Source: Eubacteriales bacterium
Lineage (GTDB): Bacteria; Bacillota; Clostridia; Christensenellales; CAG-917
Direction: 5' to 3'
Assembly: GCA_035449045.1 (NCBI GenBank)
Contig: DAOTKC010000004.1
Coordinates: 4,414-68,413, forward strand
Length of the DNA stretch: 64,000 nucleotides
Below the pieces are notes generated by a model. It made no database searches and was not told the origin of the DNA. It saw only the letters and a program-made list of their open reading frames with translations. The position numbers and the translations under genes are program-made. Shown here one piece after another: positions 7,697-63,162 of the stretch; position 1 is the first letter of the stretch; every line of letters starts with the position of its first letter.

Positions 7697-7905
7697 GTCA
7701 AGTTAAGTTAAGAAAGATGTGAACAAGAAGTTAATAGGAGTTTTTCAGTCGTCAAGTTAAGAAAGATGTGAACAAAAAGTTAATAAAAGTTTTTCAGTCG
7801 TCAAGCTAAAAAGATGTGAACAAAAAGTAATAAGAGTTTTTCAGTCGTCAAGCTAAAAAAAGTTAATAGGAGTTTTTCAGTCGTCAAGCTAAAAGGGAGG
7901 TAATT
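7697..7905 (+). repeat. tandem array of about 4.5 units (54, 49, 47, 36 and 23 bp) running into the SD/ATG of the GRE gene
   Basis: Units start with GTCAAG at 7697, 7751, 7800, 7847 and 7883. The unit core is GTCAAG(C/T)TAA(G)AAAGATGTGAACAAAAAGTTAATAGGAGTTTTTCAGTC. Confidence 0.9.
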
Positions 7906-13543: not shown

Positions 13544-13968
13544 TTTTGCCTCTTTTCATTTTCATATAGTATTTTTAATAATAATAATAACAATAAGCGC
13601 TGTGGATTTGTTTACATCCCATCCATTCCCTTATATTTCAACACATTAACCCCAAAAAACAATGTTGACAAGCCGTGCATAACCTTTTCCCTTATTCCAC
13701 ATTTCCCCATTTTCGCCCTTTCCGCTCAAAAAATCCCCTCGCCTTCCCTCTCAATAAGCCCTAAATTCTCCAAATCCCACCTCACAAACATCTCAAATTA
13801 AAAAGATAAAGTTTAGCAAGAGGCACTCGGTTTTTAAATCTAAATTAAAATAGAATTAAAACACGGGATGCCGGGCTAGGCTCGTCGAAAAAGGGGCAGG
13901 CGCGTATTATAATACGTAACTGCCTCACGACGAAGACAGAAACAACGCCCCGCGCTCATATCTGAATT
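13544..13968 (-). other. candidate oriC segment (dnaA-dnaN spacer)
   Basis: 425-bp ORF-free spacer containing a DnaA box, GC cluster, DnaA-trio array and AT-rich stretch next to dnaN. A second box-like site, TATTCCACA, lies at 13693-13701. Confidence 0.65.
13576..13609 (-). promoter_or_regulatory. DnaA box (AAATCCACA) + GCGC + seven DnaA-trios (TTA TTG TTA TTA TTA TTA TTA)
   Basis: Read directly on the minus strand at 13609->13576. The order and spacing match the published basal unwinding system architecture. Confidence 0.65.
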
Positions 13969-15357
13969 CTACCTATGTAATAACATGTCTTTGATGTCTT
14001 GCAACTGTATCCGAAGTTTAGGGTTAGTTTTCAGCCCCTCCGCAATCTTATCCCTAGCGTGTATGACGGTGGTGTGGTCGCGGCCGCCGAAATAGCCGCC
14101 GATGGTGACGAGCGGGAGGGACAGCATCTCGGTTATGAGATAAATAGCTATCATTCTCGGTTCGACAATCTCTTTATTCTTCTTTTTGCCCGTTATGTCG
14201 GCGGTGGAGATGTTGAAATATTTGCAGGTGAAAAAGATGATGTCGTTGGCGTCTATGGTATCTCTCGGCACGTCGATGATGTCTTTTAAAGCCTCTCTTG
14301 CTGCGGCCACCGTGCTGACGGGATGGCCCGACAGCGAGGAGTAGAAGATGACTTTATTTAAAAGCCCTTCCATATCGCGGACGTTGGATTCGGCGTTTTC
14401 GGCGATGAAGTGGGCGACTTCGGGAGTCAGGAAGAAACCCTCCTGCTTGGCCTTTTCTTCCAAAATAGCGATTCTGGTCTCGAGATCGGGCGGCTGGATA
14501 TCGACGGTCAAGCCCCAAGTGAAACGGGTTCTGAGACGCTCGGAAAGATGGGCGATATCCTTGGGCGGACGGTCGGAGGAGAAAATAATTTGCTTGTTCA
14601 TGTGGTGGAGGTCGTTGAAAATGTGGAAGATGGCCTCCTGAACGCCGTCCTTTCCCGCCGTGTATTGAATGTCGTCGAGCATAAGGACGTCGACAAGGCG
14701 GTATTTTTCGCGGAACTTTCTATTAAGCTCTGAGTTGTTACTCTGCCGGATGACATCAAGGTATTCGTTTAAAAATGAGTTGGTCGAAACGTAGAGCACC
14801 TTGATTTGCGGCTTATTTTTTTGTATGTAGTTGCCGATGGCGTGCATCATGTGCGTCTTGCCGAGGCCGACGCCGCCGTAAATAAACAGCGGGTTAAATT
14901 TAGTGCCGGGACAGTCGGCAACCGCCTTGGCCGCCGCCGCCGCGAACTCGTTGGAGCTGCCCACAATGAAGTTGTCGAAGGTGTATTTTTTGTTGAAGGA
15001 AAAAAGCGTGTCGCGGGGGTCGGCCGCGGCATCTTTTATGATAAAGCCGGTGTCGGGCAGCGCCTCGTCCTGACGGTTTAAGTATTCTTCCTTTTCGTCC
15101 TCTCTTATGATTTCGACGCCGGCGACGGAGACGCCCGCCGTCGACTTGGCCGATTCGATGACCTCTTCGGCGATGGTGTCTTTATAGCGCGCCTCGATGG
15201 TCTTTTTGGAAACGTCGGAAGGCGCCGCCAAAACCAGCGTGTTCTTGACAAAACACACCGGCTCCAGCCGCTGCACCCAAACCTCGAAGCCGATTGCGTG
15301 AATCTTGGCCGATAGGCGGCTTAGCGCTTCTTTCCACAGGGAATCCAAGTTGACCAT
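13969..15357 (-). CDS. dnaA: chromosomal replication initiator protein DnaA
   Basis: Walker A GGVGLGKTHMMHAIGN; C-terminal DNA-binding GGRDHTTVIHARDKI. The start is set at the ATG at 15357 (MVNLDSLW). The track ORF begins two codons earlier, at a GTG at 15363. Confidence 0.96.
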   Translation of the reverse strand: MVNLDSLWKEALSRLSAKIHAIGFEVWVQRLEPVCFVKNTLVLAAPSDVSKKTIEARYKDTIAEEVIESAKSTAGVSVAGVEIIREDEKEEYLNRQDEALPDTGFIIKDAAADPRDTLFSFNKKYTFDNFIVGSSNEFAAAAAKAVADCPGTKFNPLFIYGGVGLGKTHMMHAIGNYIQKNKPQIKVLYVSTNSFLNEYLDVIRQSNNSELNRKFREKYRLVDVLMLDDIQYTAGKDGVQEAIFHIFNDLHHMNKQIIFSSDRPPKDIAHLSERLRTRFTWGLTVDIQPPDLETRIAILEEKAKQEGFFLTPEVAHFIAENAESNVRDMEGLLNKVIFYSSLSGHPVSTVAAAREALKDIIDVPRDTIDANDIIFFTCKYFNISTADITGKKKNKEIVEPRMIAIYLITEMLSLPLVTIGGYFGGRDHTTVIHARDKIAEGLKTNPKLRIQLQDIKDMLLHR

Positions 15358-15363
15358 ATGCAC

Positions 15364-15392
15364 ATTATAATATTTTTCCGCTTGAAATTCAA
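15364..15392 (-). promoter_or_regulatory. predicted dnaA promoter: TTGAAT-17-TATAAT, with the -10 ending 6 nt before the ATG at 15357
   Basis: The reverse complement of 15387-15392 is TTGAAT. The reverse complement of 15364-15369 is TATAAT. Confidence 0.5.
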
Positions 15393-15409
15393 GTGTTTTA
15401 GGATATAAT
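15382..15409 (+). promoter_or_regulatory. predicted recF promoter: TTGAAA-16-TATAAT, with the -10 ending 6 nt before the ATG at 15416
   Basis: TTGAAA at 15382-15387 and TATAAT at 15404-15409. No SD precedes the recF ATG. Confidence 0.5.
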
Positions 15410-15415
15410 AAAATA

Positions 15416-16627: not shown

Positions 16628-16768
16628 ACTCTATAATTATATTATCTTAAATATGTGCGCGTGCATACGCGCGGGCAATTTTTTAGCTACGCAGCGGCAG
16701 ACAAGGATTAACCCGCGCAATATAACGGCATAAATGATACTAACGAACAGTTAAACGAAGAGCCTTAA

Positions 16769-16895
16769 CCAAGCTAAAAACCAAGCTAAAAACCAAGCTA
16801 AAAAATCAAGCTAAAAAATCAAGCTAAAAAATCAAGCTAAAAAATCAAGCTAAAAAACCAAGCTAAAAACCGAGGTAAAAAGCCGAGGTTAAGGA
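16769..16895 (+). repeat. tandem 12/13-bp array: eight CCAAGCTAAAAA / TCAAGCTAAAAAA units plus two degenerate CCGAGGT units, ending in the gyrB SD
   Basis: AAGCTAAAAA starts at 16771, 16783, 16795, 16808, 16821, 16834, 16847 and 16860. These are followed by CCGAGGTAAAAAG and CCGAGGTTAAGGAG. Confidence 0.95.
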
Positions 16896-18835: not shown

Positions 18836-21379
18836 ATGTCCAAAAATCAAGACAAAGACAGAGAATATATCGAGCATCTATCTAAATCCAACATCGTCAA
18901 GGTCAAAGTCGATGACGAGATGAAAAAATCCTTCATCGCCTACGCCATGGCGGTCAACGTTTCGCGCGCCATTCCCGATGTGCGCGACGGCCTTAAGCCC
19001 GTTCACAGAAGGATTCTCTATTCCATGAGCGAGCTCAATCTGACCTCGGACAAGCCTTACCGCAAATGCGCGCTCATAGTGGGCGACGTGCTCGGCAAAT
19101 ACCACCCCCACGGCGACTCCTCCGTCTATGAAGCCCTCGTCAGGATGGCGCAGGACTTTTCGATACGCTGCCCCCTCGTCGACGGGCACGGCAACTTCGG
19201 CTCGGTGGACGGCGACCCGGCCGCGGCATACCGCTATACCGAGGCTAAGCTCAGTAAAATCGCCTCCGAGATGATAAGGGACATCGAAAAAAACACCGTC
19301 GATTTTTATCCCAACTTCGACAACACCAAGGACCAGCCCTCGGTGCTGCCCGCGCGCTTCCCCAACCTTTTGGTCAACGGCTCCGACGGCATAGCAGTCG
19401 GCATGGCGACGTCGATACCGCCTCACAACTTGGGCGAGGTGATTGACGGCACCGTCGCGCTCATCGACAACCCCGACATCGAAATAGCCGACCTCATGGA
19501 ATACATTCCCGCGCCCGACTATCCCACCGCCGCCGTCGTCCTCGGGCGGGCGGCCATCCGCCAAGCTTACATGACCGGCCGCGGGGGCGCAGTTATCCGC
19601 GCCCGCGCCGAAATCGAGGAAAGCCCAAACGGCAGAAGCCGGATTGTCGTCACAGAACTTCCCTACCAAGTCAACAAAGCCAAGCTCATTGAAACGATAG
19701 CCGACCAGGTCAAGGATAAGCGCCTCGAGGGAATTTCCGACATCAGCGAGGAATCCGACCGCTCGGGCATGCGGATTGTCATTGAAATAAAGCGCGATGC
19801 CAATCCCAACGTCGTCCTCAACACCCTCTACAAGCAGACCAACATGCAGATAACCAACAGCATTATTTTGCTTGCCTTGGTGGACGGCGTGCCCCGCATC
19901 TTAAATTTGAAGCAGATGCTTCAATACTATATCGAGCATCAGGAGCAGGTCGTCATCCGCCGCACCCGCTTCGACCTCGACAAAGCGCAGGAGCGTGAGC
20001 ACATCATTCACGGCCTTGTTATCGCGCTCGACAACATCGACGCCGTCATTGAAACGATTAAGGCCTCGCCCGACCGCGCCGCCGCCATGACAAACCTGAT
20101 GGAGGGCTTCGCGCTCTCCGAAAAGCAGGCCGCGGCCGTCCTCGATATGCGCTTGCAGCGGCTTACCGGCCTCGAAGTGGGCAAACTTAAAGAGGAGCTC
20201 GTCGAGCTCGAAGGGCAAATCGAGTATTTCAAGGGCATTTTAGCCTCGCCCGAAAAGGTGCGCGATATAATAAAGACCGAACTTCTCGAAATCAAGGAAA
20301 AATACGGCACGCCTCGCCGCTCCGAGCTTTCCTACGACTACACCGAGCTCAACATAGCCGATTTAATTGAGCGGCAGGACATCGTGGTGTCGCTGACTCA
20401 CCTCGGATATATCAAGCGCATGCCCGTTTCGGAATACCGCAGCCAGAACCGCGGCGGCACCGGCATGCAGGCCCACAAGCCCAAGGAAGACGACTTCGTC
20501 GAAAGCATGTTCATCACCAATACCCACAAATATATTCTCTTTTTCACCAACTTGGGCAAGGTCTACCGCATGATGGGCTACGAGATTCCCGAAGCGGCGA
20601 GAACGGCGAGAGGGCGCGCCATCGTAAATCTTCTTCAGCTTGCCGAAAACGAGAAAGTGACGGCCATGCTCCGCCATCAGGAAAATCAGACGGGCTACCT
20701 CATGCTTGCCACCAAAAACGGCAAAATTAAAAAGACCGACCTTAAAGAGTTCGAGAGCATTAGGACCAACGGCAAAATCGCCATCGTGCTCGCACCCGAC
20801 GACGAGCTGGTTGCGGCGGCGGTGACGGCGGGCGACGAGGAGATTATTCTGGCATCCAGCTCGGGCAAATGCATCCGCTTTAAAGAGGAAGACGTCCGCG
20901 ATATGGGCCGCGTCGCACAGGGCGTCAAGAGCATTAAATTGAAAGAGGGCGAAAGCGTCGTCGATATGGCGGTCATCAAGGAGGATTGCGAAATTTTGAC
21001 CGTCACCCAAAACGGCTTCGGCAAACGCACCGACCAAAACGAATACCGCGTTCAGGGCCGCGCCGGCATGGGTATTCTCGCCGGACGCTTCAGCGAGGAG
21101 ACGGGCGGGCTGGTCTGCCTTAAGGTGATTCCGCCCGACACCGACATCATGCTGATTGCCGATAACGGCGTCATGATCCGCATCAAGGCGCGCGATATCA
21201 GCAAAATCGGCCGCGCCACCAAGGGCGTCATCATAATGCGCCTTAAAAACGACAGCAAGGTTATCTGCGTCGCGCTGACTCCCGCCGAAGAAGAGGACGA
21301 AAACGCCGAAAACGGCGAGGCAGTCGAAACGGCTGCGGAGGAAACGGCGAGCGAAGAATCGGCTGCGCCGAACGAATAA
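18836..21379 (+). CDS. gyrA: DNA gyrase subunit A, with an acidic C-terminal tail
   Basis: [46 protein letters not shown]; GyrA-box/beta-pinwheel C-terminus; tail [24 protein letters not shown]. Confidence 0.97.
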
Positions 21380-21454
21380 CGAAAAACTTTGGATAGCGGC
21401 GCGGTGCGCCCGAACGAAAAATTAATAATTAGTAATAATAATGAATAACTTCGG
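21361..21454. repeat. dispersed intergenic repeat family, locus D (A-rich orientation), overlapping the gyrA stop codon
   Basis: GGCTGCGCCGAACGAATAACGAAAAACTTTGGATAGCGGCGCGGTGCGCCCGAACGAAAAATTAATAATTAGTAATAATAATGAATAAC aligns with loci A and C. Confidence 0.75.
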
Positions 21455-21459
21455 AAAGA

Positions 21460-21491
21460 AAAAATTCCGCGAAAACAGCGGAATTTTTTTA
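21460..21491 (+). terminator. gyrA terminator
   Basis: AATTCCGC-GAAAACA-GCGGAATTTTTTT. Confidence 0.8.
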
Positions 21492-23061: not shown

Positions 23062-24747
23062 ATGGAGAAATCAAACGTTCAATGGTGGAAAGAGGCCTGC
23101 TTTTATCAGATTTGGCCGAGAAGCTTCAAAGACGGCAACAATGACGGCATCGGCGACCTTAAGGGAATTTTGGAAAAGCTTCCCTATATCAAGGAGTTGG
23201 GCTGCGACGCCATTTGGTTTTCGCCGCTCTACGTTTCGCCGCAAAGCGACTACGGTTACGACATAGCCGACTACCGCGACATCGCGCCCGAATACGGCAC
23301 TCTCGACGATTTCAAGGCGGTTTTGGACGCTGCGCACGCACTCGGAATCAAGGTCATAATGGACCTCGTCATTAACCACACATCCAACAAGCACCGCTGG
23401 TTTTTGGAAAGCAGAAAAGGCGGCGACGACAACCCTTATAAGGATTATTATATTTGGCGCCCCGGCAAGGGAAAAGACGGCAAGAAAAAGCCCAACAATT
23501 GGACGGCGACCTTCCCCGGCGAGGCGTGGGAATTCGACGAAGTTCGCGGCGAATATTACCTCCACCTTTTCGCTGTCGAGCAGCCCGACCTCAACATGGA
23601 CAACCCCAAGGTCCGAGAAGAGGTCAAGGACATCATGCGCTTTTGGCTGGATATGGGTGTCGACGGCTTCCGCGAGGACGTCATCACTTTCATAAGCAAG
23701 CGTGAAGGCCTGCCCAACGGCTTTCCCATTCCCGCCGCGCGCGGCATCGAGCACTACGCAAACGGCCCGCACCTTCACGAATACCTGAAAGAATTTAAGG
23801 AAGTTTGGGCAAGCTACGGCGCCATGACGGTGGGTGAGGCGCCCATGATGACGCCCAAACGCGCTCTCAAGTTCATATCCGAAGGCGAAAATCAGGAGCT
23901 CAACATGATGTTCGGCTTCCAGCACATGGAGGCGGATTGTTTCTTGTTCAGCTGGCTGAGGCGCCCCTTCAACCTCAGAAAATTAAAGAGGGTTCTCAAT
24001 AATTGGCAGACCAAGCTCTACGGCAAGGCGTGGAACACATTGTTTATCGAAAACCATGACCAGCCGCGCATCGTTTCGCGCTACGGCTGCGACCACGAGG
24101 CCTACCGCGCGCTGAGCGCCAAGGCGCTTGCCACCATGTATCTCTTGCTTTCGGGTACTCCCTTCATCTATCAAGGGCAGGAAATCGGCATGACCAACAT
24201 CGGCGGCGAAAAGCTCTCCGACTACGCCGACGTCAACACCTTCGCCTGCTATCGGCTTTTTAGAAAGCTGGGCTTCTCCCACGAGAACGTCATGGCAAAG
24301 GCCGCCTACGCCGCCCGCGACAACGCCAGAACGCCGGTGCAATGGAGCGCAGGTAAATACGCCGGATTTTCTAAATCCGAACCGTGGTTCCGCGTTAACC
24401 CCAACCATAAAAAAGTTAACGTCGAAGACGCCTTAAACAACGAAAACAGCATTTTAAACTACTATAAAGAGCTGATAAAGTTCCGAAAAGGAAATAAAAC
24501 GGTGCTTTACGGCGACTTTATCCTCCACAACAAATTCAGTAAAAAGCTGTTCGTCTACGAAAGAAACTACCTCGGTGAAAAGCTTTTGGTCGCCATAAAC
24601 TTCACTACATGCGACGTCCCCTTTGTTGCCCCAAAGGGCATTGACTTAAACGGGGGCAAGCTTATTATCAGCAACTATCCTCACGCCGAAAATGAGCCCG
24701 CGCCCGTAAGCCTGCGCCCCTACGAAGCCGTTGTCTTTAAGTTCTAA
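23062..24747 (+). CDS. GH13 alpha-glucosidase / oligo-1,6-glucosidase family
   Basis: WWKEACFYQIWPRSFKDGNNDGIGDLKG, DLVINHTS, GVDGFREDV, FIENHDQPR conserved regions. Confidence 0.9.
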   Translation: MEKSNVQWWKEACFYQIWPRSFKDGNNDGIGDLKGILEKLPYIKELGCDAIWFSPLYVSPQSDYGYDIADYRDIAPEYGTLDDFKAVLDAAHALGIKVIMDLVINHTSNKHRWFLESRKGGDDNPYKDYYIWRPGKGKDGKKKPNNWTATFPGEAWEFDEVRGEYYLHLFAVEQPDLNMDNPKVREEVKDIMRFWLDMGVDGFREDVITFISKREGLPNGFPIPAARGIEHYANGPHLHEYLKEFKEVWASYGAMTVGEAPMMTPKRALKFISEGENQELNMMFGFQHMEADCFLFSWLRRPFNLRKLKRVLNNWQTKLYGKAWNTLFIENHDQPRIVSRYGCDHEAYRALSAKALATMYLLLSGTPFIYQGQEIGMTNIGGEKLSDYADVNTFACYRLFRKLGFSHENVMAKAAYAARDNARTPVQWSAGKYAGFSKSEPWFRVNPNHKKVNVEDALNNENSILNYYKELIKFRKGNKTVLYGDFILHNKFSKKLFVYERNYLGEKLLVAINFTTCDVPFVAPKGIDLNGGKLIISNYPHAENEPAPVSLRPYEAVVFKF

Positions 24748-24894: not shown

Positions 24895-26580
24895 TTATTC
24901 TTTATAGCTATATTCGTAAACGAACGTTTCGTAGGGCTTTAAAAACCTGTCGGAGATTTTTTCGGAATCGTCCAAATCATAATTCGACATGACGAGTTTG
25001 AAGCCGGAGGCCTTCTTCTTCAGCTCCTCAGGCAAGGCGAAAGCGGTCGGCTTGTCTCTAAAGCTTGCCGCAACTAAGTAGCCTTTTCCTTGATATTCGC
25101 GGGTGTAGACGAATATATCATCGCTCTTAGGGTAGAACTCGTTATAGCTTCCGCATTTTATTATCTCGTTGCCGAGCCTGAAACGGTTGAGCTTTTTATA
25201 GAAGTTCAAGACCGAGTCGGCGTCTTTTTGAGCCTCCTCTACGTTTATCTCCTTATAGTTCGGGTTCACCATCATCCACGGCTCGACGTCGGAAAAACCG
25301 GCGTATTTACCTGCGCTCCATTGCATCGGCGTTCTGGCGTGGTCGCGGGCGCGCTTCTGAAGCGCCCATCTGACGACGGGAAGCAGCGGCGGGAACAGTT
25401 TTTTGACGAAGTCGTAGACGTTAATCGAAACGATATCCTTGTAATCCTCGCGCTTAAAGTCGGCGATATTGGTCATGCCTATTTCCTGACCCTGATAGAT
25501 ATAGGGCGTGCCCTTTTGAAAGTTCATGACTACCGCCAGCATCTTGGCGACCTGCTTTCGGTGTTCAAGCTTGCCGTAGCGCGGAATGACGCGCGAATAG
25601 TCGTGGTTTTCCAAAAACAGCGAGTTCCAGCAGTTGTCGGGAATGCGCTGCCAGCTCGAAAGAATCTTTTTAAAGCGCGACAGCTTGAATTTCCGCGGCA
25701 CCACGTGGAGGAAAGCGTCGGCCTCCTGGTGCTCGAAGGTGAAGATGGCGTCGAGCTCCTCGCGGTCTTCGGCGACCATGCTCTCGGCGTCCTTAACGGT
25801 GATGCCCTGTCCCTCGCCCACCGTCATGATGTCGTATTTCGACCAGCTGTTTTTATTTAATTCATGGATATATTCGTGATAGTGCGGCCCGATTACGAAT
25901 TTTTCGTCGCCGCAGGTGATGGGGTTGAACTTGCCATCGGGGAGCCCTTCCGTTTTGGATATGTAAATTATGACGTCGCAGCGGAAGCCGTCGACGCCGA
26001 GGTCGAGCCAGTAGTTGCAGATGTCGGCGACCTCCTGCCGCACCTTGGGGTTGTCCCAGTTCAAATCGGGCTGTTTTTTGCTGAATAAGTGGAGATACCA
26101 CTCGCCCGTTGTCTCGTCGTATTCCCACGCCGGCCCCGAAAAGCGCGAAGTCCAGTTGTTGGGCGGCTTTTTACCGTCCTTGCCTCTGCCGGGACGCCAA
26201 ATGTAGTAGTCGCGGTAGGGGTTGTCCTTGCTTTTTTTGGACTCCTGAAACCAAAAATGCTCGTCCGAGGTGTGGTTGACGACCAAGTCCATAATCAGGC
26301 GGATGCCGCGCTTGTGCATGCCGTCAATCATCTCCTTCCAGTCGTCCAGCGTGCCGAATTCCTCCATTATGTCGCGGTAGTCGGAGATGTCGTAGCCGTT
26401 GTCGTCGTTGGGGGATTTATAACACGGCGAAAGCCAAACCGCCGTTACGCCGAGATCCTTTAAGTAGTCGAGCTTTTCGATGATGCCGCGGATATCGCCG
26501 ACGCCGTCACCGTTGCTGTCGCGAAAGCTTCTCGGGTAAATCTGATAAAAAATGCTGTCCTTATACCATCTGGTCTTCAT
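24895..26580 (-). CDS. GH13 alpha-glucosidase / oligo-1,6-glucosidase family (paralog)
   Basis: WYKDSIFYQIYPRSFRDSNGDGVGDIRG, DLVVNHTS, GVDGFRCDV, FLENHD. Start is set at the ATG at 26580 (MKTRWYK), behind GGAGGAG. The track ORF starts 10 codons earlier. Confidence 0.9.
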   Translation of the reverse strand: MKTRWYKDSIFYQIYPRSFRDSNGDGVGDIRGIIEKLDYLKDLGVTAVWLSPCYKSPNDDNGYDISDYRDIMEEFGTLDDWKEMIDGMHKRGIRLIMDLVVNHTSDEHFWFQESKKSKDNPYRDYYIWRPGRGKDGKKPPNNWTSRFSGPAWEYDETTGEWYLHLFSKKQPDLNWDNPKVRQEVADICNYWLDLGVDGFRCDVIIYISKTEGLPDGKFNPITCGDEKFVIGPHYHEYIHELNKNSWSKYDIMTVGEGQGITVKDAESMVAEDREELDAIFTFEHQEADAFLHVVPRKFKLSRFKKILSSWQRIPDNCWNSLFLENHDYSRVIPRYGKLEHRKQVAKMLAVVMNFQKGTPYIYQGQEIGMTNIADFKREDYKDIVSINVYDFVKKLFPPLLPVVRWALQKRARDHARTPMQWSAGKYAGFSDVEPWMMVNPNYKEINVEEAQKDADSVLNFYKKLNRFRLGNEIIKCGSYNEFYPKSDDIFVYTREYQGKGYLVAASFRDKPTAFALPEELKKKASGFKLVMSNYDLDDSEKISDRFLKPYETFVYEYSYKE

Positions 26581-26642
26581 AACTCCTCCCAAACGTTGTT
26601 CTTCTTTCAATTATAAGCCATATCCCGCCGTCTGTCAAAGCG

Positions 26643-26799
26643 CTGCGGATAGCGGCTTACGCCGAACGATAAACGCTCAACGAAAAACGAAAAACTGCGG
26701 ATAGCGGTTTACGCCGAACGGCTTACGCCGAACGGCTTACGCCGAACGATAAACGCTCAACAAAAAACGAAAACCTGCGGATAGCGGCGCAAGCGCCAA
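26643..26799. repeat. dispersed intergenic repeat family, locus A (A-rich orientation; 2.5 tandem units with an internal 3x GGCTTACGCCGAAC)
   Basis: CTGCGGATAGCGGCTTACGCCGAACGATAAACGCTCAACGAAAAACGAAAAA is repeated. Confidence 0.9.
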
Positions 26800-27047
26800 A
26801 TAAAACTAAAATTGCGCGTGGGCAGTAACACCGCCCTGTGCCATTTATAACCCGAAATTGAAGAGGCCGCCTAATAATAAGAACATCGGGCGGCCTCTTC
26901 AAAATATGATAAGGGGGAAAATTATGAGCTGATATAATCAATCTTTAATTACAAGCAAATTTTAACATTAGCCAAAATGTTTGTCAAGAAGTTTTGTTAA
27001 AAAAGTTGCAAAAAATTTTGTTATAGTTTAAAAAAGCCGCATTTTCC

Positions 27048-28322
27048 TTAAATTTCGCGCAATACATCGGTGAGTTTTGTCAAAATACGAGCCGCAATTT
27101 CGGGGTCACCCTCAACCATAATTCGGATTACGGGCTCTGTTCCGCTGGCTCTGACTAAAACGCAGCCGGCGTCGCCCATGAGCTTCTTTGCTCGCTCGAC
27201 CTCCTTCAATAAATAAGTGTTGGACATCGCGGCGTATTTATCGCGGACGGCAACGTTTTTCTCGGTGACGGGATAGGGTTTATAGTCGGGAAGGTCGGTG
27301 ATAAGCCGCGTCTTTAAAAACCACGCCGCCGACATGATGCCGTCGCAGGTCGCAACGTAGTCGCCGATTATGAGGTGTCCGCTCCTCTCGCCGCCGAGAG
27401 CGGCGTTCAGGCGTTTCATATCGGCGAGCACGTATTTGTCGCCGACGTCGGCGCGGTGGAGCTTGACGCCCCGACGGGATAAAAAGCATTCGAGGGCGGA
27501 GTTGGTCATCGAGGTGCCGACGACTATGTTATTTTTGAGAAGCCCGCGCGAGAGAAGATAGTCGGAAATGTAATATAGAAAATGGTCGCCGTCGAGAAGC
27601 TTGCCGTCATAAATCCCTATCACGCGGTCGCCGTCGCCGTCGAAGGCGAAGCCGACGCCGTCAGTCATCTTTGTCGATAAAAACTCGGGGTGCGTCGAGC
27701 CCGAATAGACGTTGACCAAATCGCCGTCGTAAGAGTTGCAAAGTGCGGTGACGGAGGCGCCCAAGGCGGAAAAGATGTCCGCCGCGAAACCCGCGGTAGC
27801 GCCGAAACAGCAGTCAAGCGTTATTGATATGCCCGAAAACGAGGCGTTGACCGCCTCTTTAACATAGTCGCAATAAATCGCCTTGGCGTCTTGAAGGTCA
27901 ACAAGCTTAGCGGCGCCTAAGCCTTTCGCGGGGTTTTCCATCTGCTCGTTGAAGCGCTCCTCCAGCGAGGCGGGCGGCTTTTCGCCTTCGGCAACCAGCG
28001 TTTTTAAGCCGTTGTCGGTGGGCGGGTTGTGGGACGCCGTCACCATGACGCCGTAGTCCGCCTCGAATTTTTTGACTAAAAAGGCGAGCACGGGTGTGGG
28101 GATTATCCCCGCCGAAATAATCTCGAGGTCAAATTCGCTCAAGCCCTCGATTAGCTCGGCGTAAATCTCCTCCGAGGTGTTTCTGGTGTCCCTCGCTACG
28201 ACGATGCGCTTCGGCTTATATCCGCCCAAAACGCGGGCGAGCCTGAGCGCGGTGTGTTCAAAGAGCAGCAGACGCCCTTCGGCGCGGATTCCATCGGTTC
28301 CAAATAAACAAGATTTATCCAT
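27048..28322 (-). CDS. alpha-D-phosphohexomutase family protein (GlmM-like phosphoglucosamine mutase)
   Basis: FGTDGIRAEG, phosphoserine loop TASHNPPTDNGLK, metal loop FDGDGDR, GGERSGH. Confidence 0.8.
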   Translation of the reverse strand: MDKSCLFGTDGIRAEGRLLLFEHTALRLARVLGGYKPKRIVVARDTRNTSEEIYAELIEGLSEFDLEIISAGIIPTPVLAFLVKKFEADYGVMVTASHNPPTDNGLKTLVAEGEKPPASLEERFNEQMENPAKGLGAAKLVDLQDAKAIYCDYVKEAVNASFSGISITLDCCFGATAGFAADIFSALGASVTALCNSYDGDLVNVYSGSTHPEFLSTKMTDGVGFAFDGDGDRVIGIYDGKLLDGDHFLYYISDYLLSRGLLKNNIVVGTSMTNSALECFLSRRGVKLHRADVGDKYVLADMKRLNAALGGERSGHLIIGDYVATCDGIMSAAWFLKTRLITDLPDYKPYPVTEKNVAVRDKYAAMSNTYLLKEVERAKKLMGDAGCVLVRASGTEPVIRIMVEGDPEIAARILTKLTDVLREI

Positions 28323-28412
28323 GATGGAATATTATATTCAAAATATTTTCCGCGAGTGACTTGCTCCAAAATCGCCAAAAAAATTTTTTTCTCAAATAAA
28401 GCGGTAAAGCAA

Positions 28413-28553
28413 CCACATTATTCATTATTCGTTAATCATATTCATTCCGCGAAAGCCGCAATCCGCAGTTTTTCGTTTTTCGTTGAGCGTTTTTCGTTCG
28501 GTGAAAGCCGCTATCCACAGTTTTTCGTTTTTCGTTGAGCGTTTATCGTTCGG
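28413..28553. repeat. dispersed intergenic repeat family, locus B (T-rich orientation; 2 units, the first with the AT-rich module)
   Basis: ...GCCGCAATCCGCAGTTTTTCGTTTTTCGTTGAGCGTTTTTCGTTCGG / ...GCCGCTATCCACAGTTTTTCGTTTTTCGTTGAGCGTTTATCGTTCGG. Confidence 0.9.
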
Positions 28554-28685
28554 GCTTCCTCATTGAATGCGCGCGCCATTCAATGGGCAGCCCGTTGCGC
28601 GGTTTATAAATTTTTGTGACTATTTTTGTCAAGACTATTACATTTGCGTTGGATTTTTGCTATTATTTTTATTAGGAGAGGGAAT

Positions 28686-29009
28686 ATGAGCAATGTAAAG
28701 CACCCTAAGGGCAAGCTCAGGCTGATGGCCGCCGAGGCAAAAAAGCGCGTCACGGAAAACAACTACAAAGCGGTGCAAAAAGATAGTGTGATGTCCGAGT
28801 TGCCCTTGATGGAACGCGAGCTTTACCGAAAAATTCTCGATATTTTGGCGCGGGAATCCGAGCTCATTAACCCGATAGGCGAGCTTATAAACCGCGAAGC
28901 GTTTGAAAAAATGACGCCCGCCGAGAGGCAGCGGGAGCTCTTTCGGCTCTCCGAACTCTATTTGAAAATTAAGGCGAAACTTGCCAAGGTGAAATCCAAA
29001 AGCGAATAG
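28686..29009 (+). CDS. hypothetical small helical, Lys/Glu-rich protein (107 aa)
   Basis: ATG at 28686 behind AGGAGAGGG. No family recognised. Confidence 0.55.
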   Translation: MSNVKHPKGKLRLMAAEAKKRVTENNYKAVQKDSVMSELPLMERELYRKILDILARESELINPIGELINREAFEKMTPAERQRELFRLSELYLKIKAKLAKVKSKSE

Positions 29010-29050
29010 CTTTTTAGCCTTCAATCCCGATATCAAAATAAGTGAAAACA

Positions 29051-29082
29051 AAAAAATCCGACAGAGCTCTGTCGGATTTTTT
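29051..29082. terminator. bidirectional terminator (perfect palindrome) between the hypothetical gene and trxB
   Basis: AAAAAATCCGACAGAG-CTCTGTCGGATTTTTT. Confidence 0.85.
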
Positions 29083-29101
29083 AACTAAAAGCCCCCAAAG
29101 G

Positions 29102-30055: not shown

Positions 30056-30213
30056 GCCAAAAAAATTTGTTTTTTGCTTTTTTCCCGAAAATATAAAAAT
30101 CCCGCTCGTTTGCTTTTTAAATTTTATAAACCTTGCCAAAAAAATTTGTTTTTTGCTTTTTTCCCGAAAATATAAAAACCCCGCTCGTTTGTTTTTTAAA
30201 TTTTATAAACCTT
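30056..30213. repeat. 2 x 79-bp tandem duplication (2 mismatches) filling the dut-trxB spacer
   Basis: The copies span 30056-30134 and 30135-30213. Copy 2 ends at the base before the dut stop codon. Confidence 0.95.
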
Positions 30214-50307: not shown

Positions 50308-50333
50308 AAAAAAGCCCTCCTCGGGCTTTTTTC
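50308..50333 (+). terminator. glxK terminator
   Basis: AAAAAAGCCC-TCCTC-GGGCTTTTTT. Confidence 0.75.
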
Positions 50334-50532
50334 ATCCACAGTTATTCATTATTCATTATTAATTATTAATTCGGCGTAAGCCGTCATCCACCGTTTTTCG
50401 TTTTTCGTTGAGCGTTTTTCTTTCGGCGCAACGCGCCGCGTCCACCATTATTCATTATTCATTATTAATTATTAATTCGGCGTAAGCCGCCATCCACCGT
50501 TTTTCGTTTTTCGTTGAGCGTTTTTCATTCGG
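50333..50532. repeat. dispersed intergenic repeat family, locus C (T-rich orientation; 2 full units of about 106 bp)
   Basis: TCCAC(A/C)(G/A)TTATTCATTATTCATTATTAATTATTAATTCGGCGTAAGCCG(T/C)CATCCACCGTTTTTCGTTTTTCGTTGAGCGTTTTTC(T/A)TTCGG occurs twice. Confidence 0.9.
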
Positions 50533-50534
50533 AG

Positions 50535-51971
50535 TTACTCCGCTAGCGCAGCGAGCGCCGAGTTCAAACGCCGCAGGCTTTCATCTTTTCCCAAAATATC
50601 GAGCATTTCAAAAGCACCTCCCGGCGTGCTCTCGCGGTTGGTCACAGCTATTCGGAGCGGCCAAAGGAGCTGGCCTTTCTTTAGGGGCGAGGCCTCGGCA
50701 AACGCCATGACGGCGTCGTGCAGCGACTGCTGAGTCCATTCCGAAATTCCGCTAAGCAGCGGAATCAGCGCTTTCAGCGCCTCTTTTGCCGTGGCTCTGT
50801 CGGCCTTTTGCTTTTTATTTTCGTAAAGCGCGGCGTCCACGCCGTCGTAGCTATCTAAAAACGCCCACAGCGCCCCGATTTCGGAGAGAATTTCCACTCT
50901 CGGCTGAGTCAGCGGTGCGAGCTTTGTTATAGCGTATTTTTTAGCCGTCTCGGCGAAGTAAGGCTTGGAAACCTCCAAAAAATCCTCGGGCGAAAGCTCC
51001 TTTACATATTGCGCGTTGAGCCATTTCAGCTTAGCCTCGTCGAAGATGGCGGGGGAGTTGTTGAGTCCGTCCACCGAAAAGCGGGCGATAAGTTCGTCAA
51101 GCGTAAATTTTTCGCGGTTTTCCTTGGGGCTCCAGCCTAAAAGCGCGATATAGTTGACGATTGCCTCGGCTAGATAGCCCTTATGAATAAAATCTTCAAA
51201 GTTGGCGTCGCCGTAGCGCTTGGAGAGCTTTCGCGCCGCATCCTTCATTATGACGGGAAGGTGGATATAGGCGGGACGCTGCCAGCCGAAGCTGTCATAA
51301 ATCAAGTTATATTTGGGCGTGCTGGAAAGGTATTCGCTGCCGCGTATGACGTGCGTTATCGCCATCAGGTGGTCGTCGACGACGTTGGCGAAGTTGTAGG
51401 TCGGCATGCCGTCGCTCTTTAAAAGAATGTTGTCCTCGAGGTCGGCGCAGTCTAACTCAATCTCGCCGAAAACCAAATCGGTGTAGCCGGTCTTGCCGTG
51501 TTCGGGAATGTTTTGGCGGATGACGTAGCTTTCGCCGGCGGCGAGCTTTGCTTCAATCTCGCTCTTTGTCAGTTTAAGGCAGTGCTTGTCGTATTTTTTG
51601 ACGCCCTTGTCGTCGGCCAGCTCCTCCAAACGCTCCTTGGAGCAGAAGCAGTAATAAGCGCCGCCCAGCTCAACCAGCTTTTTGGCGTATTTTGTATAGA
51701 TTTCCTTTCGTTCGCTTTGGATATAGGGCCCAAAGTCGCCGCCGACATCCGGTCCTTCGTCGTGCGTGAGGCCGGCTTTTTTGAGCGTCGAGAAGATAAC
51801 GTCTACCGCGCCCTCGATAAAGCGCTCGCGGTCGGTATCCTCTATTCTCAAAATGAACTTGCCGTTATTTGCGCGCGCGAACAAAAACGCGTAGAGCGCG
51901 GTGCGGAGGTTGCCTATGTGCATGAAGCCCGTCGGGCTGGGAGCGAATCTTGTTCTTACTGTGTCCATCAT
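50535..51971 (-). CDS. gltX: glutamate--tRNA ligase
   Basis: VRTRFAPSPTGFMHIGNLRTALY (HIGH) and KLSKR (KMSKS). Confidence 0.95.
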   Translation of the reverse strand: MMDTVRTRFAPSPTGFMHIGNLRTALYAFLFARANNGKFILRIEDTDRERFIEGAVDVIFSTLKKAGLTHDEGPDVGGDFGPYIQSERKEIYTKYAKKLVELGGAYYCFCSKERLEELADDKGVKKYDKHCLKLTKSEIEAKLAAGESYVIRQNIPEHGKTGYTDLVFGEIELDCADLEDNILLKSDGMPTYNFANVVDDHLMAITHVIRGSEYLSSTPKYNLIYDSFGWQRPAYIHLPVIMKDAARKLSKRYGDANFEDFIHKGYLAEAIVNYIALLGWSPKENREKFTLDELIARFSVDGLNNSPAIFDEAKLKWLNAQYVKELSPEDFLEVSKPYFAETAKKYAITKLAPLTQPRVEILSEIGALWAFLDSYDGVDAALYENKKQKADRATAKEALKALIPLLSGISEWTQQSLHDAVMAFAEASPLKKGQLLWPLRIAVTNRESTPGGAFEMLDILGKDESLRRLNSALAALAE

Positions 51972-62961: not shown

Positions 62962-63087
62962 TTATATGCCGCAAGAAGATATTTAGCCGCGCAATGAAAC
63001 TCCCTCCGCATTTTGTCTAGTGCTTTATATTGTCAGTAACCTTTTTCAAATAATGCGTTAAAAGATTGAATAAAAAGCAGTCGAATA

Positions 63088-63138
63088 ATGTTTCACAAAT
63101 GTTTCACAAGGCAAAAAATGTTTCACGAAATGTTTCAC
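63088..63138 (+). repeat. four direct copies of ATGTTTCAC (parS left half-site)
   Basis: Copies at 63088, 63099, 63118 and 63130. The last is part of the palindrome ATGTTTCACAAACAT. Confidence 0.8.
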
Positions 63139-63162
63139 AAACATTATCTATCATGTTATAAT
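63134..63162 (+). promoter_or_regulatory. predicted parB-like promoter: TTCACA-17-(TGt)TATAAT
   Basis: TTCACA at 63134-63139 lies inside half-site repeat 4. TATAAT at 63157-63162 has an extended -10 TG. Confidence 0.5.

Follow-up and report, generated by a model that had tools for sequence, protein, structure and literature searches.

The 64,000-nucleotide stretch analyzed here (contig DAOTKC010000004.1 of the Eubacteriales assembly GCA_035449045.1, positions 4,414 to 68,413; hereafter the window) covers a chromosomal origin region with the genes gidA-trmE-jag-yidC-rnpA, dnaN, dnaA, recF, gyrB, gyrA ... parB-gidB, and harbors four loci of one dispersed repeat family: A (50332-50542, + strand), B (28410-28594, +), C (26643-26811, -) and D (21360-21458, -). 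These loci had been proposed in an earlier note made from the sequence alone, and all four, together with the strings quoted for them, were recovered where it had placed them; every hairpin and DnaA-like word it listed likewise proved to be a true substring. A 34-nt T-rich core, GTTTTTCGTTTTTCGTTGAGCGTTTTTCGTTCGG, has six matches with up to three mismatches in the window (A, 50393 and 50499 on the + strand; B, 28468 and 28520, +; C, 26662 and 26742, -), against none in 100 dinucleotide shuffles, and locus D is a shortened copy of the family (nhmmer, E=5e-4). The repeat finder grouped the loci as a direct family (D2) and as inverted pairs (I3-I16). According to Tandem Repeats Finder (TRF), the higher-order period is 106 nt for locus A and 52 nt for B, and a further period of 14 nt in C corresponds to a hairpin triplet. 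All TRF period-7 arrays with at least four copies in the 64 kb lie inside family loci, with 4.1-4.6 copies per tract.

The repeat unit is modular (Table 1, with module coordinates set by exact string search). Read on the T-rich strand, it consists of a box, C(T/C)ATCC(A/G)C(A/C)G, followed by a tract of ~30 nt composed of four heptads plus TT, and by a GC hairpin that starts with CGG and ends with CCG. The tract exists in a T flavour (TTTTTCG TTTTTCG TTGAGCG TTTTTCG TT) and an AT flavour (TTATTCA TTATTCA TTATTAA TTATTAA TT), with an intermediate flavour, TTATTCG, on a related contig; its length is 30 nt in 8 of the 11 window tracts, and the box-to-box spacing amounts to 52, 54 and 52 nt at A and to 52 nt at B and C. 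The AT-rich module, previously taken for an accessory of the units, fills the same 30-nt slot between box and hairpin as the T-flavour tract. Since both flavours occupy one slot, locus A comprises four units and not two, as had been counted from the core. The module had also been reported at loci C, B and D, which needs correction for C, where just a 14-nt remnant is left (26798-26811).

Table 1. Modules of the four repeat loci and of the terminators adjoining them (positions in the window).
Feature	Position	Strand	Composition and remarks
Bidirectional intrinsic terminator at A	50308..50332	.	AAAAAAGCCC-TCCTC-GGGCTTTTTT; directly abuts first box of A
A unit 1	50332..50383	+	box TCATCCACAG 50332-50341; AT tract 50342-50371 (30 nt); hairpin CGGC-GTAA-GCCG 50372-50383
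A unit 2	50384..50438	+	box TCATCCACCG; T tract TTTTTCGTTTTTCGTTGAGCGTTTTTCTTT 50394-50423; hairpin CGGCGC-AAC-GCGCCG 50424-50438
A unit 3	50439..50489	+	box CGTCCACCA; AT tract 50448-50477; hairpin CGGC-GTAA-GCCG 50478-50489
A unit 4	50490..50542	+	box CCATCCACCG; T tract 50500-50529; hairpin CGGAG-TTA-CTCCG 50530-50542
B unit 1, degenerate	28410..28458	+	box-like CAACCACA; degenerate AT tract 28418-28446; imperfect hairpin CCGCGAAAGCCG
B unit 2	28459..28510	+	box CAATCCGCAG; canonical T tract 28469-28498; hairpin CGGT-GAAA-GCCG
B unit 3	28511..28594	+	box CTATCCACAG; T tract 28521-28550; long hairpin CGGGCT...AGCCCG 28551-28594
C leader	26786..26811	-	degenerate tract TTTTAGTTTTATTT 26798-26811; hairpin GGCGC-TT-GCGCC 26786-26797
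C unit 1	26705..26784	-	box CTATCCGCAG 26775-26784; T tract 26745-26774; three tandem 14-nt hairpin copies
C unit 1, hairpin copies	26733-26744, 26719-26730, 26705-26716	-	
C unit 2	26643..26704	-	box CTATCCGCAG 26695-26704; T tract 26665-26694; hairpin CGGC-GTAA-GCCG 26653-26664
C terminal box	26643-26652	-	CTATCCGCAG; amylase promoter TTGACA-17-TATAAT (26638-26610) comes right after
D unit 1	21397..21458	-	box-like CTTTCCGAAG 21449-21458; 36-nt AT tract 21413-21448; hairpin CGGGCGC-ACC-GCGCCG 21397-21412
D unit 2, short	21360..21396	-	box CTATCCAAAG 21387-21396; two-heptad tract TTTTTCGTTATTCGTT 21371-21386; hairpin CGGC-GCA-GCCG 21360-21370
Bidirectional terminator at D	21459..21489	.	AAAAAATTCCGC-GAAAACA-GCGGAATTTTTT; adjoins D; common to gyrA and the convergent condensation-domain gene

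Changes in hairpin sequence leave the pairing intact, as had been claimed from fewer copies of the element in the window. Thirty-four hairpin slots, gathered from the window and related contigs and each checked as a substring, represent 27 distinct sequences with 13 distinct 5' arms (among them CGGC, CGGCGC, CGGCGCG, CGGAG, CGGGCT, AGGCT, AGCCG, GCAAGC, GGCTCC and CGAGCTTAA); the palindromes measure 11-20 nt, with one of 44 nt. Pairing was assessed by end-anchored pair counts and partner shuffling; a MAFFT alignment of the slots misaligned stems of unequal length. Over the 27 distinct hairpins the outer five pairs are 96% Watson-Crick, compared with 63% when partners are shuffled, and none of 5000 partner shuffles reached the observed share. 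End-anchored stems of at least 4 bp are present in 23 of these 27 hairpins and in 1.2% of composition-matched shuffles. In strain L034, the G.T pair of the B unit 2 hairpin is replaced by a C-G pair. Folding of the whole locus A yields short hairpins only, with no extended structure, and z-scores relative to shuffles of +0.37 for the A-rich strand and -2.85 for the T-rich strand. On the latter strand, the loops closed by 4-bp stems start with G and end with A (GTAA, GAAA, GAA, GCA, GCAA, GATA), a feature shared with RNA GNRA loops and with the highly stable DNA minihairpins d(GCGAAGC) and d(GCGAAAGC). These loops hint at the T-rich strand as the folding strand; because they may share common descent, they are a hint and no proof.

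The placement of the elements relative to genes follows a rule. Locus A lies between the glxK bidirectional terminator and gltX, and the loop of its fourth hairpin is the gltX stop codon, read on the minus strand (50535-50537). At locus D, a bidirectional terminator follows the element, which includes the stop codon of gyrA (21377-21379); the second unit overlaps the end of the gene, and the element supplies the final six codons of GyrA plus the stop. The view that all copies are intergenic is therefore correct in essence but not in the strict sense. Locus B is situated in the 779-nt trxB-glmM spacer, the same genes being 20 nt apart in the nearest relatives, whereas locus C is flanked by a terminator on one side and by the promoter of an amylase gene, a perfect TTGACA-17-TATAAT, on the other; C and B form an inverted pair around glmM (76 nt, 89% complementary). 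The gene with the abutting 3' end has the A-rich strand as its sense strand at 12 loci out of 13 (binomial p=0.003), the sole exception being locus C. In the majority of these loci, the stop codon is either included in the element or no more than 20 nt away from it, and at convergent-gene junctions the element stands between the stop codon of the abutting gene and the shared terminator. The A-rich strand of the AT flavour carries stop codons in all three frames, which may be why gyrA and two genes on related contigs end inside an element. The trxB-glmM spacer (28323-29101) additionally holds an antisense open reading frame (ORF) of 107 aa (28687-29009, +), which is a gene call in the JGI data and has no Pfam match.

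Slippage and recombination are directly visible in the population, which is otherwise 99.8-99.9% identical between samples. The 106-nt double unit, present twice at A in the window, is single in one sample, and the 14-nt hairpin triplet of C is a pair in three samples. At locus B of one strain, the hairpin CGGTGAAAGCCG is changed to CGGCAAAAGCCG and a box variant is swapped between two units; in this strain, six of eight substitutions over 4.4 kb fall inside element B. Between loci, the number of heptads varies by one extra or one missing. Seven short-read glmM contigs end inside T-rich cores, on both sides, as expected of a multi-copy repeat.

Contigs of the window's population are present in many anaerobic-digester metagenomes and in the metagenome-assembled genome (MAG) GCA_035384665.1. 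About 1 kb past the window end, in the spacer that separates gidB from a PNP_UDP_1 gene, lies a fifth locus, E (L061, 2490-2700; ~64.8-65.0 kb when the window numbering is continued). It opens with terminator, ATCCACAG and AT tract, in a sequence that hardly differs from the first part of A, and the same layout of terminator, box and AT tract recurs, with a different terminator stem, at D. When metagenomes were scanned with a 20-nt core, seven additional loci proved to be true members, distributed over at least six other contigs of sister samples, and an eighth contig carried a partial copy; the additional loci obey the same box-tract-hairpin grammar, with heptads added or missing. Among them, prfB-[two units]-tsaD comes from the same samples as the window contigs and is 99.99% identical between assemblies, and on account of this co-occurrence and identity it is assigned to the window's genome. 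The family is thus not confined to the origin region. Outside the window, every hit is a locus with a single core, an indication that short-read assemblies lose loci with several cores. Among 185,579 species representatives none matched a 23-nt core, which means that this set lacks the species; in the nearest available relatives (GlmM 43-47% identical) the family is absent and trxB and glmM are adjacent, leaving no orthologous empty or filled sites to compare.

A related family came to light in a second genome scan, on five contigs of a MAG from termite gut (WQYM01, Bacillota bacterium Emb289P3bin92; L054-L058). The unit in this MAG starts with a box, (A/G)TCCGCCG, followed by (TTTTTCG)2-4 and, in some cases, by a hairpin. 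Other spacers of the same MAG contain arrays of about four heptads, each spacer with its own heptad (TTATCTK, TATTCRC, TTTGTAA, ATTGTGR or TTGTGCG) or octamer; the arrays are often inverted, 30-110 nt apart, and would form stems of ~28 bp. A conserved core, GGATAAGTnnTGAAAGGTTC, adjoins the box in several of these spacers. Reading it as an extracytoplasmic function (ECF)-type promoter (GGAAC-N17-CGT) was discarded as speculative; the motif is absent from the window elements.

Searches for known elements gave no assignment. The element ends bear no terminal inverted repeats, the only inverted repeats found being the terminators, and no target-site duplication was seen in the flanks. Neither transposase nor integrase, reverse transcriptase or RAYT occurs among the Pfam-hit genes on the contigs covering the window, where several ORFs have no Pfam hit. 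No match to known insertion sequence (IS) or MITE ends was found; such a match had been named in the earlier note as speaking against its proposal. Rfam returned no hit at the gathering score in the window and none with E<=1 in 26550-28750, the tRNA scan found none, and viral contigs as well as phage and plasmid BLAST searches gave no match, although the low-complexity filter may mask the tracts. A literature search on the heptad strings retrieved unrelated primer sequences only. As for other candidates, a CRISPR array was rejected, as the 30-nt "spacers" are two recurring low-complexity flavours and not unique, with no cas among the called genes; integron attC sites and Spo0A, Fur/PerR, LexA and CtsR operators showed no consensus match by eye; and the units are not intrinsic terminators: the 10-nt box parts the hairpin from the T tract, so that a GC hairpin with a T run 0-2 nt behind it exists only in the flanking terminators and in one unit of locus C.

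The general kind of the family, in turn, is familiar. Like the enterobacterial REP/BIME elements, it is short, non-coding, high-copy and extragenic, a mosaic of GC-rich palindrome and short motifs, with unit numbers that vary per locus, a location at gene 3' ends and between cistrons, and non-random orientation. The proposal of a dispersed, essentially intergenic repeat family of this kind is accordingly upheld as regards its extragenic, multi-copy and mosaic character, but not as regards the conserved 20-40-nt palindrome and the GTAG word of REP elements. The palindrome here is very short (4-7 bp) and variable (13 different 5' arms), the conserved parts are the box and the heptad tract, and neither GTAG, a RAYT nor any sequence similarity to REP/BIME was seen; moreover, the units are direct tandems, whereas the palindromic units (PUs) of REP/BIME alternate in inverted order. 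BOX of Streptococcus pneumoniae (boxA-boxB(n)-boxC) and STAR of Staphylococcus aureus are likewise modular intergenic repeats of Firmicutes, whose internal module number varies between loci and strains. STAR consists of a short GC-rich motif at ~40-50-bp intervals in AT-rich spacing, much like the hairpin and box described here. The sequences are unrelated, however, and a heptad sub-repeat tract occurs in neither; in addition, BOX modules are 45-59 nt long with one long stem-loop. MITEs and REPINs share with the family the small size, dispersal, non-coding nature and hairpin potential, but not its lack of terminal inverted repeats, target-site duplications, doublets and detected transposase.

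Intergenic tandem heptamers are also found in the heptanucleotide simple sequence repeats (SSRs), such as the cyanobacterial STRR, the long SSRs (LSSR) of Mrazek et al. and the TAACTGA repeats of Beggiatoaceae. The tracts agree with this class in their head-to-tail 7-nt units, intergenic position and slippage variation, yet they are no plain homogeneous heptamer arrays: phyla and heptamers differ, and the array here is held near four heptads and interrupted regularly, at a 52-nt register, by box and hairpin, which gives a repeat of higher order. A comparable combination has reportedly been noted in Nostoc by Elhai et al. in 2008, where hairpin elements with compensatory changes, the small dispersed repeats (SDR), are said to be embedded in heptamer arrays. 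According to the account of Mrazek et al. (2007) given in PMC4679880, intergenic tandem heptamers of 2-7 copies are the commonest long-SSR class in bacteria and are ascribed to polymerase slippage; the heptad tracts fit this known prevalence of bacterial heptanucleotide SSRs. Because sequence and defining features fail in each case, membership in the REP/BIME, BOX or heptamer families is not proposed, and the family, though real and of a known general kind, is apparently undescribed.

The interpretation favored here, at a probability of roughly 0.55, is that of a lineage-specific mosaic interspersed repeat of an uncultured Christensenellales bacterium, changing by slippage and recombination, and neither a gene nor a known RNA nor an origin device. 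Replication slippage or unequal recombination adds and removes units, single heptads and single hairpins, and family copies exchange sequence with one another. Elements are tolerated only in spacers or over the final few codons of genes; the usual place is behind a stop codon and ahead of the next start codon or of a bidirectional terminator, and the A-rich strand is nearly always sense. Spread to new spacers may proceed by a copy mechanism, through a trans-acting enzyme or by recombination, and the hairpin may owe its persistence either to selection or to single-strand template switching that corrects palindromes. Effects on the host, e.g., 3'-end hairpins acting as exonuclease barriers or added stop codons, would be secondary, as they are for REP/BIME and BOX elements.

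Several points weigh against the mosaic repeat interpretation. Mobility is inferred and not demonstrated, as neither an empty site nor a target-site duplication nor an associated enzyme was found. Hairpin boundaries were set by eye, which somewhat inflates the pairing statistic; locus D is invariant in 10 samples; and the extra contigs other than that of prfB-tsaD are tied to the window's genome by sample co-occurrence and repeat identity. Finally, the near-constant 30-nt tract and 52-nt spacing (five helical turns) could reflect a selected function, and so could the strong orientation bias and the exact terminator abutment at A, D and E.

One such function might be exerted in cis at the RNA level, where the A-rich strand, as part of 3' untranslated regions (UTRs) and intercistronic spacers, would set differential mRNA stability within operons. 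The unstructured A/U-rich tract would then be an entry point for an endonuclease (e.g., RNase Y) or a site read in 7-nt register by an OB-fold protein (cold-shock, S1), and the GC hairpins would protect the resulting ends. The predominant sense orientation of the A-rich strand (12 of 13 loci, from or inside the stop codon) speaks for this possibility, as do the position of the element at A, D, E and L018, where it separates the stop codon from the sole terminator, and the alternation of hairpins with unstructured tracts. REP/BIME elements, for their part, stabilise upstream mRNA. Furthermore, S1, Csp and CsrA have been proposed as binders of the intergenic TAACTGA heptamer repeats (PMC4679880). 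A role of this kind nevertheless seems doubtful to us, given that the tract sequence is conserved neither between flavours nor between loci of the termite-gut MAG, that the G..A (GNRA-like) loops are on the T-rich and not on the sense strand, and that locus C is reversed and sits in a terminator-promoter spacer.

The near-identical cores dispersed at unrelated loci and the inverted pair of B and C around glmM would also suit a non-autonomous transposable element (MITE or REPIN) whose transposase or RAYT would be supplied from another part of the genome, and hairpins are the substrate of Y1 (IS200/IS605, RAYT) enzymes (PMC3116915). We consider this origin unlikely: terminal inverted repeats and target-site duplications were not seen, the hairpin, which is the part that a RAYT recognises, is the least conserved in sequence, a GTAG-type conserved 5' word is missing, the Pfam-hit genes on the contigs covering the window include no transposase, and the units are direct tandems without doublets.

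Rather improbable, too, is a barrier to read-through or antisense transcription, in which hairpin and U-rich tract would reinforce the adjacent bidirectional terminator in the T-rich direction and so shield the neighbouring gene from transcripts of the convergent gene or from antisense ones. The T-rich element does start at the terminator T-run and point away from it at A, E, D and L016 (and after a short T-rich stretch at L018), its strand is more structured than shuffles (z=-2.85), and one unit scores terminator-like. The 10-nt box intervenes between hairpin and U tract, however, and the terminator rule fits just 1 of ~11 units; besides, operon-internal loci have no upstream terminator, and a separate canonical terminator is already in place.

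Of similarly low probability, and wider in scope, is the notion that box plus heptad arrays constitute a clade-wide system of uncultured Bacillota, in which a conserved word (RTCC...) would nucleate or anchor about four heptads of free sequence; that length, register and, in the termite-gut MAG, inverted pairing are what is maintained is the corresponding long shot. If true, such a system would call for a dedicated partner, either a single-stranded nucleic acid-binding protein reading the 7-nt register or an enzyme making templated heptads, and would organise mRNA 3' ends and intercistronic processing genome-wide.

The box had been likened to the DnaA box, with titration of DnaA by weak sites as a possible role. 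The window has no perfect TTATCCACA, and the 11 element boxes differ from it by 1, 2, 4, 3, 3, 3, 1, 2, 2, 2 and 2 mismatches, with two boxes within one mismatch and nine carrying two to four; G replaces A at position 7 in five of them, and in related loci the box decays to CCRCMG. One-mismatch sites number 19 in the window against 7 expected, and only two of them are element boxes. The DnaA-box clusters (DBCs) outside oriC in Bacillus subtilis are similarly intergenic and origin-proximal and contain TTATCCACA-like words, but they are made of many closely packed boxes with at most one mismatch, a density not seen here, where one mostly poor box recurs per 52 bp. Unlike DBCs, the family also reaches beyond the origin region, with at least one such locus in the same genome. 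In view of all this, a DNA-level array whose boxes, about five helical turns apart, would recruit a protein is very unlikely, even with spacings near whole helical turns (52-54 bp, and 32 bp in the termite-gut MAG), five loci within ~50 kb of dnaA, the two boxes close to TTATCCACA and one further occurrence of ATCCACAG in the dnaA-dnaN spacer, and the attractive DnaA-titration idea, for which nothing speaks in the sequence, is removed as unsupported.

Regarded as a mosaic interspersed repeat, the family adds a Clostridia example to a small set and joins two phenomena usually kept apart, heptanucleotide SSRs and hairpin-type extragenic repeats. It explains the breaks of short-read assemblies and MAGs at these spacers in the digester lineage, and its unit, hairpin and heptad copy numbers offer variable-number tandem repeat (VNTR) markers for strain tracking in a 99.9%-identical population. 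The orientation rule and the stop-to-terminator placement lead to a concrete hypothesis of a 3'-UTR role.

Some other features of the window were recorded alongside. In the unusual origin layout (13544-15415), dnaA-dnaN on the minus strand diverge from recF-gyrB-gyrA across just 52 nt; a canonical DnaA-box cluster was found neither in the dnaA-dnaN spacer nor in the rest of the window, and GC skew, flat throughout, is uninformative on origin site and replication direction. Four or five copies of ATGTTTCAC, a parS-like half site, are arranged in an 11-12-nt register at 63087-63141, closely preceding the ParB gene. A 13-nt tandem repeat, AACCAAGCTAAAA, with ~9 copies (16767-16881) directly precedes gyrB, and 49/36-nt repeats (7705-7894) directly precede a pyruvate-formate-lyase-like gene; CAAGCTAAAAA is common to the two. 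Short repeats of 9/15 nt (GAAAACGCC and the like) make up the coding sequence of the acidic tail at the GyrA C-terminus (21285-21368). Between trxB and the dUTPase gene, a 79-nt AT-rich unit is present in two tandem copies (30056-30213, 97% identical).

Next to locus C, the convergent alpha-amylase genes (23062-24747, +; 24895-26610, -) are paralogous, with ~75% DNA identity over long stretches (inverted repeats I1, I2, I6). Downstream of glmM lies a candidate small RNA gene (26860-26987, -), with a predicted promoter TTGACA-17-TAAAAT (26987-26959), a 27-nt block, AGCTCATAATTTTCCCCCTTATCATAT (26930-26904), and then a hairpin (26900-26860); it has no Rfam match. The block is invariant in relatives whose GlmM is just 43% identical, while the hairpin that follows differs there in sequence. 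Finally, in the MAG DAINAU01 (L052, GC 39%), positions 1-700 contain tandem repeats of ~150 nt with TTCCGCAG-TTTTTCGTTTTTCG, whose hairpins combine a conserved TTTCA loop with covarying stems (CAAACC/GGTTTG, CGACCC/GGGTCG).

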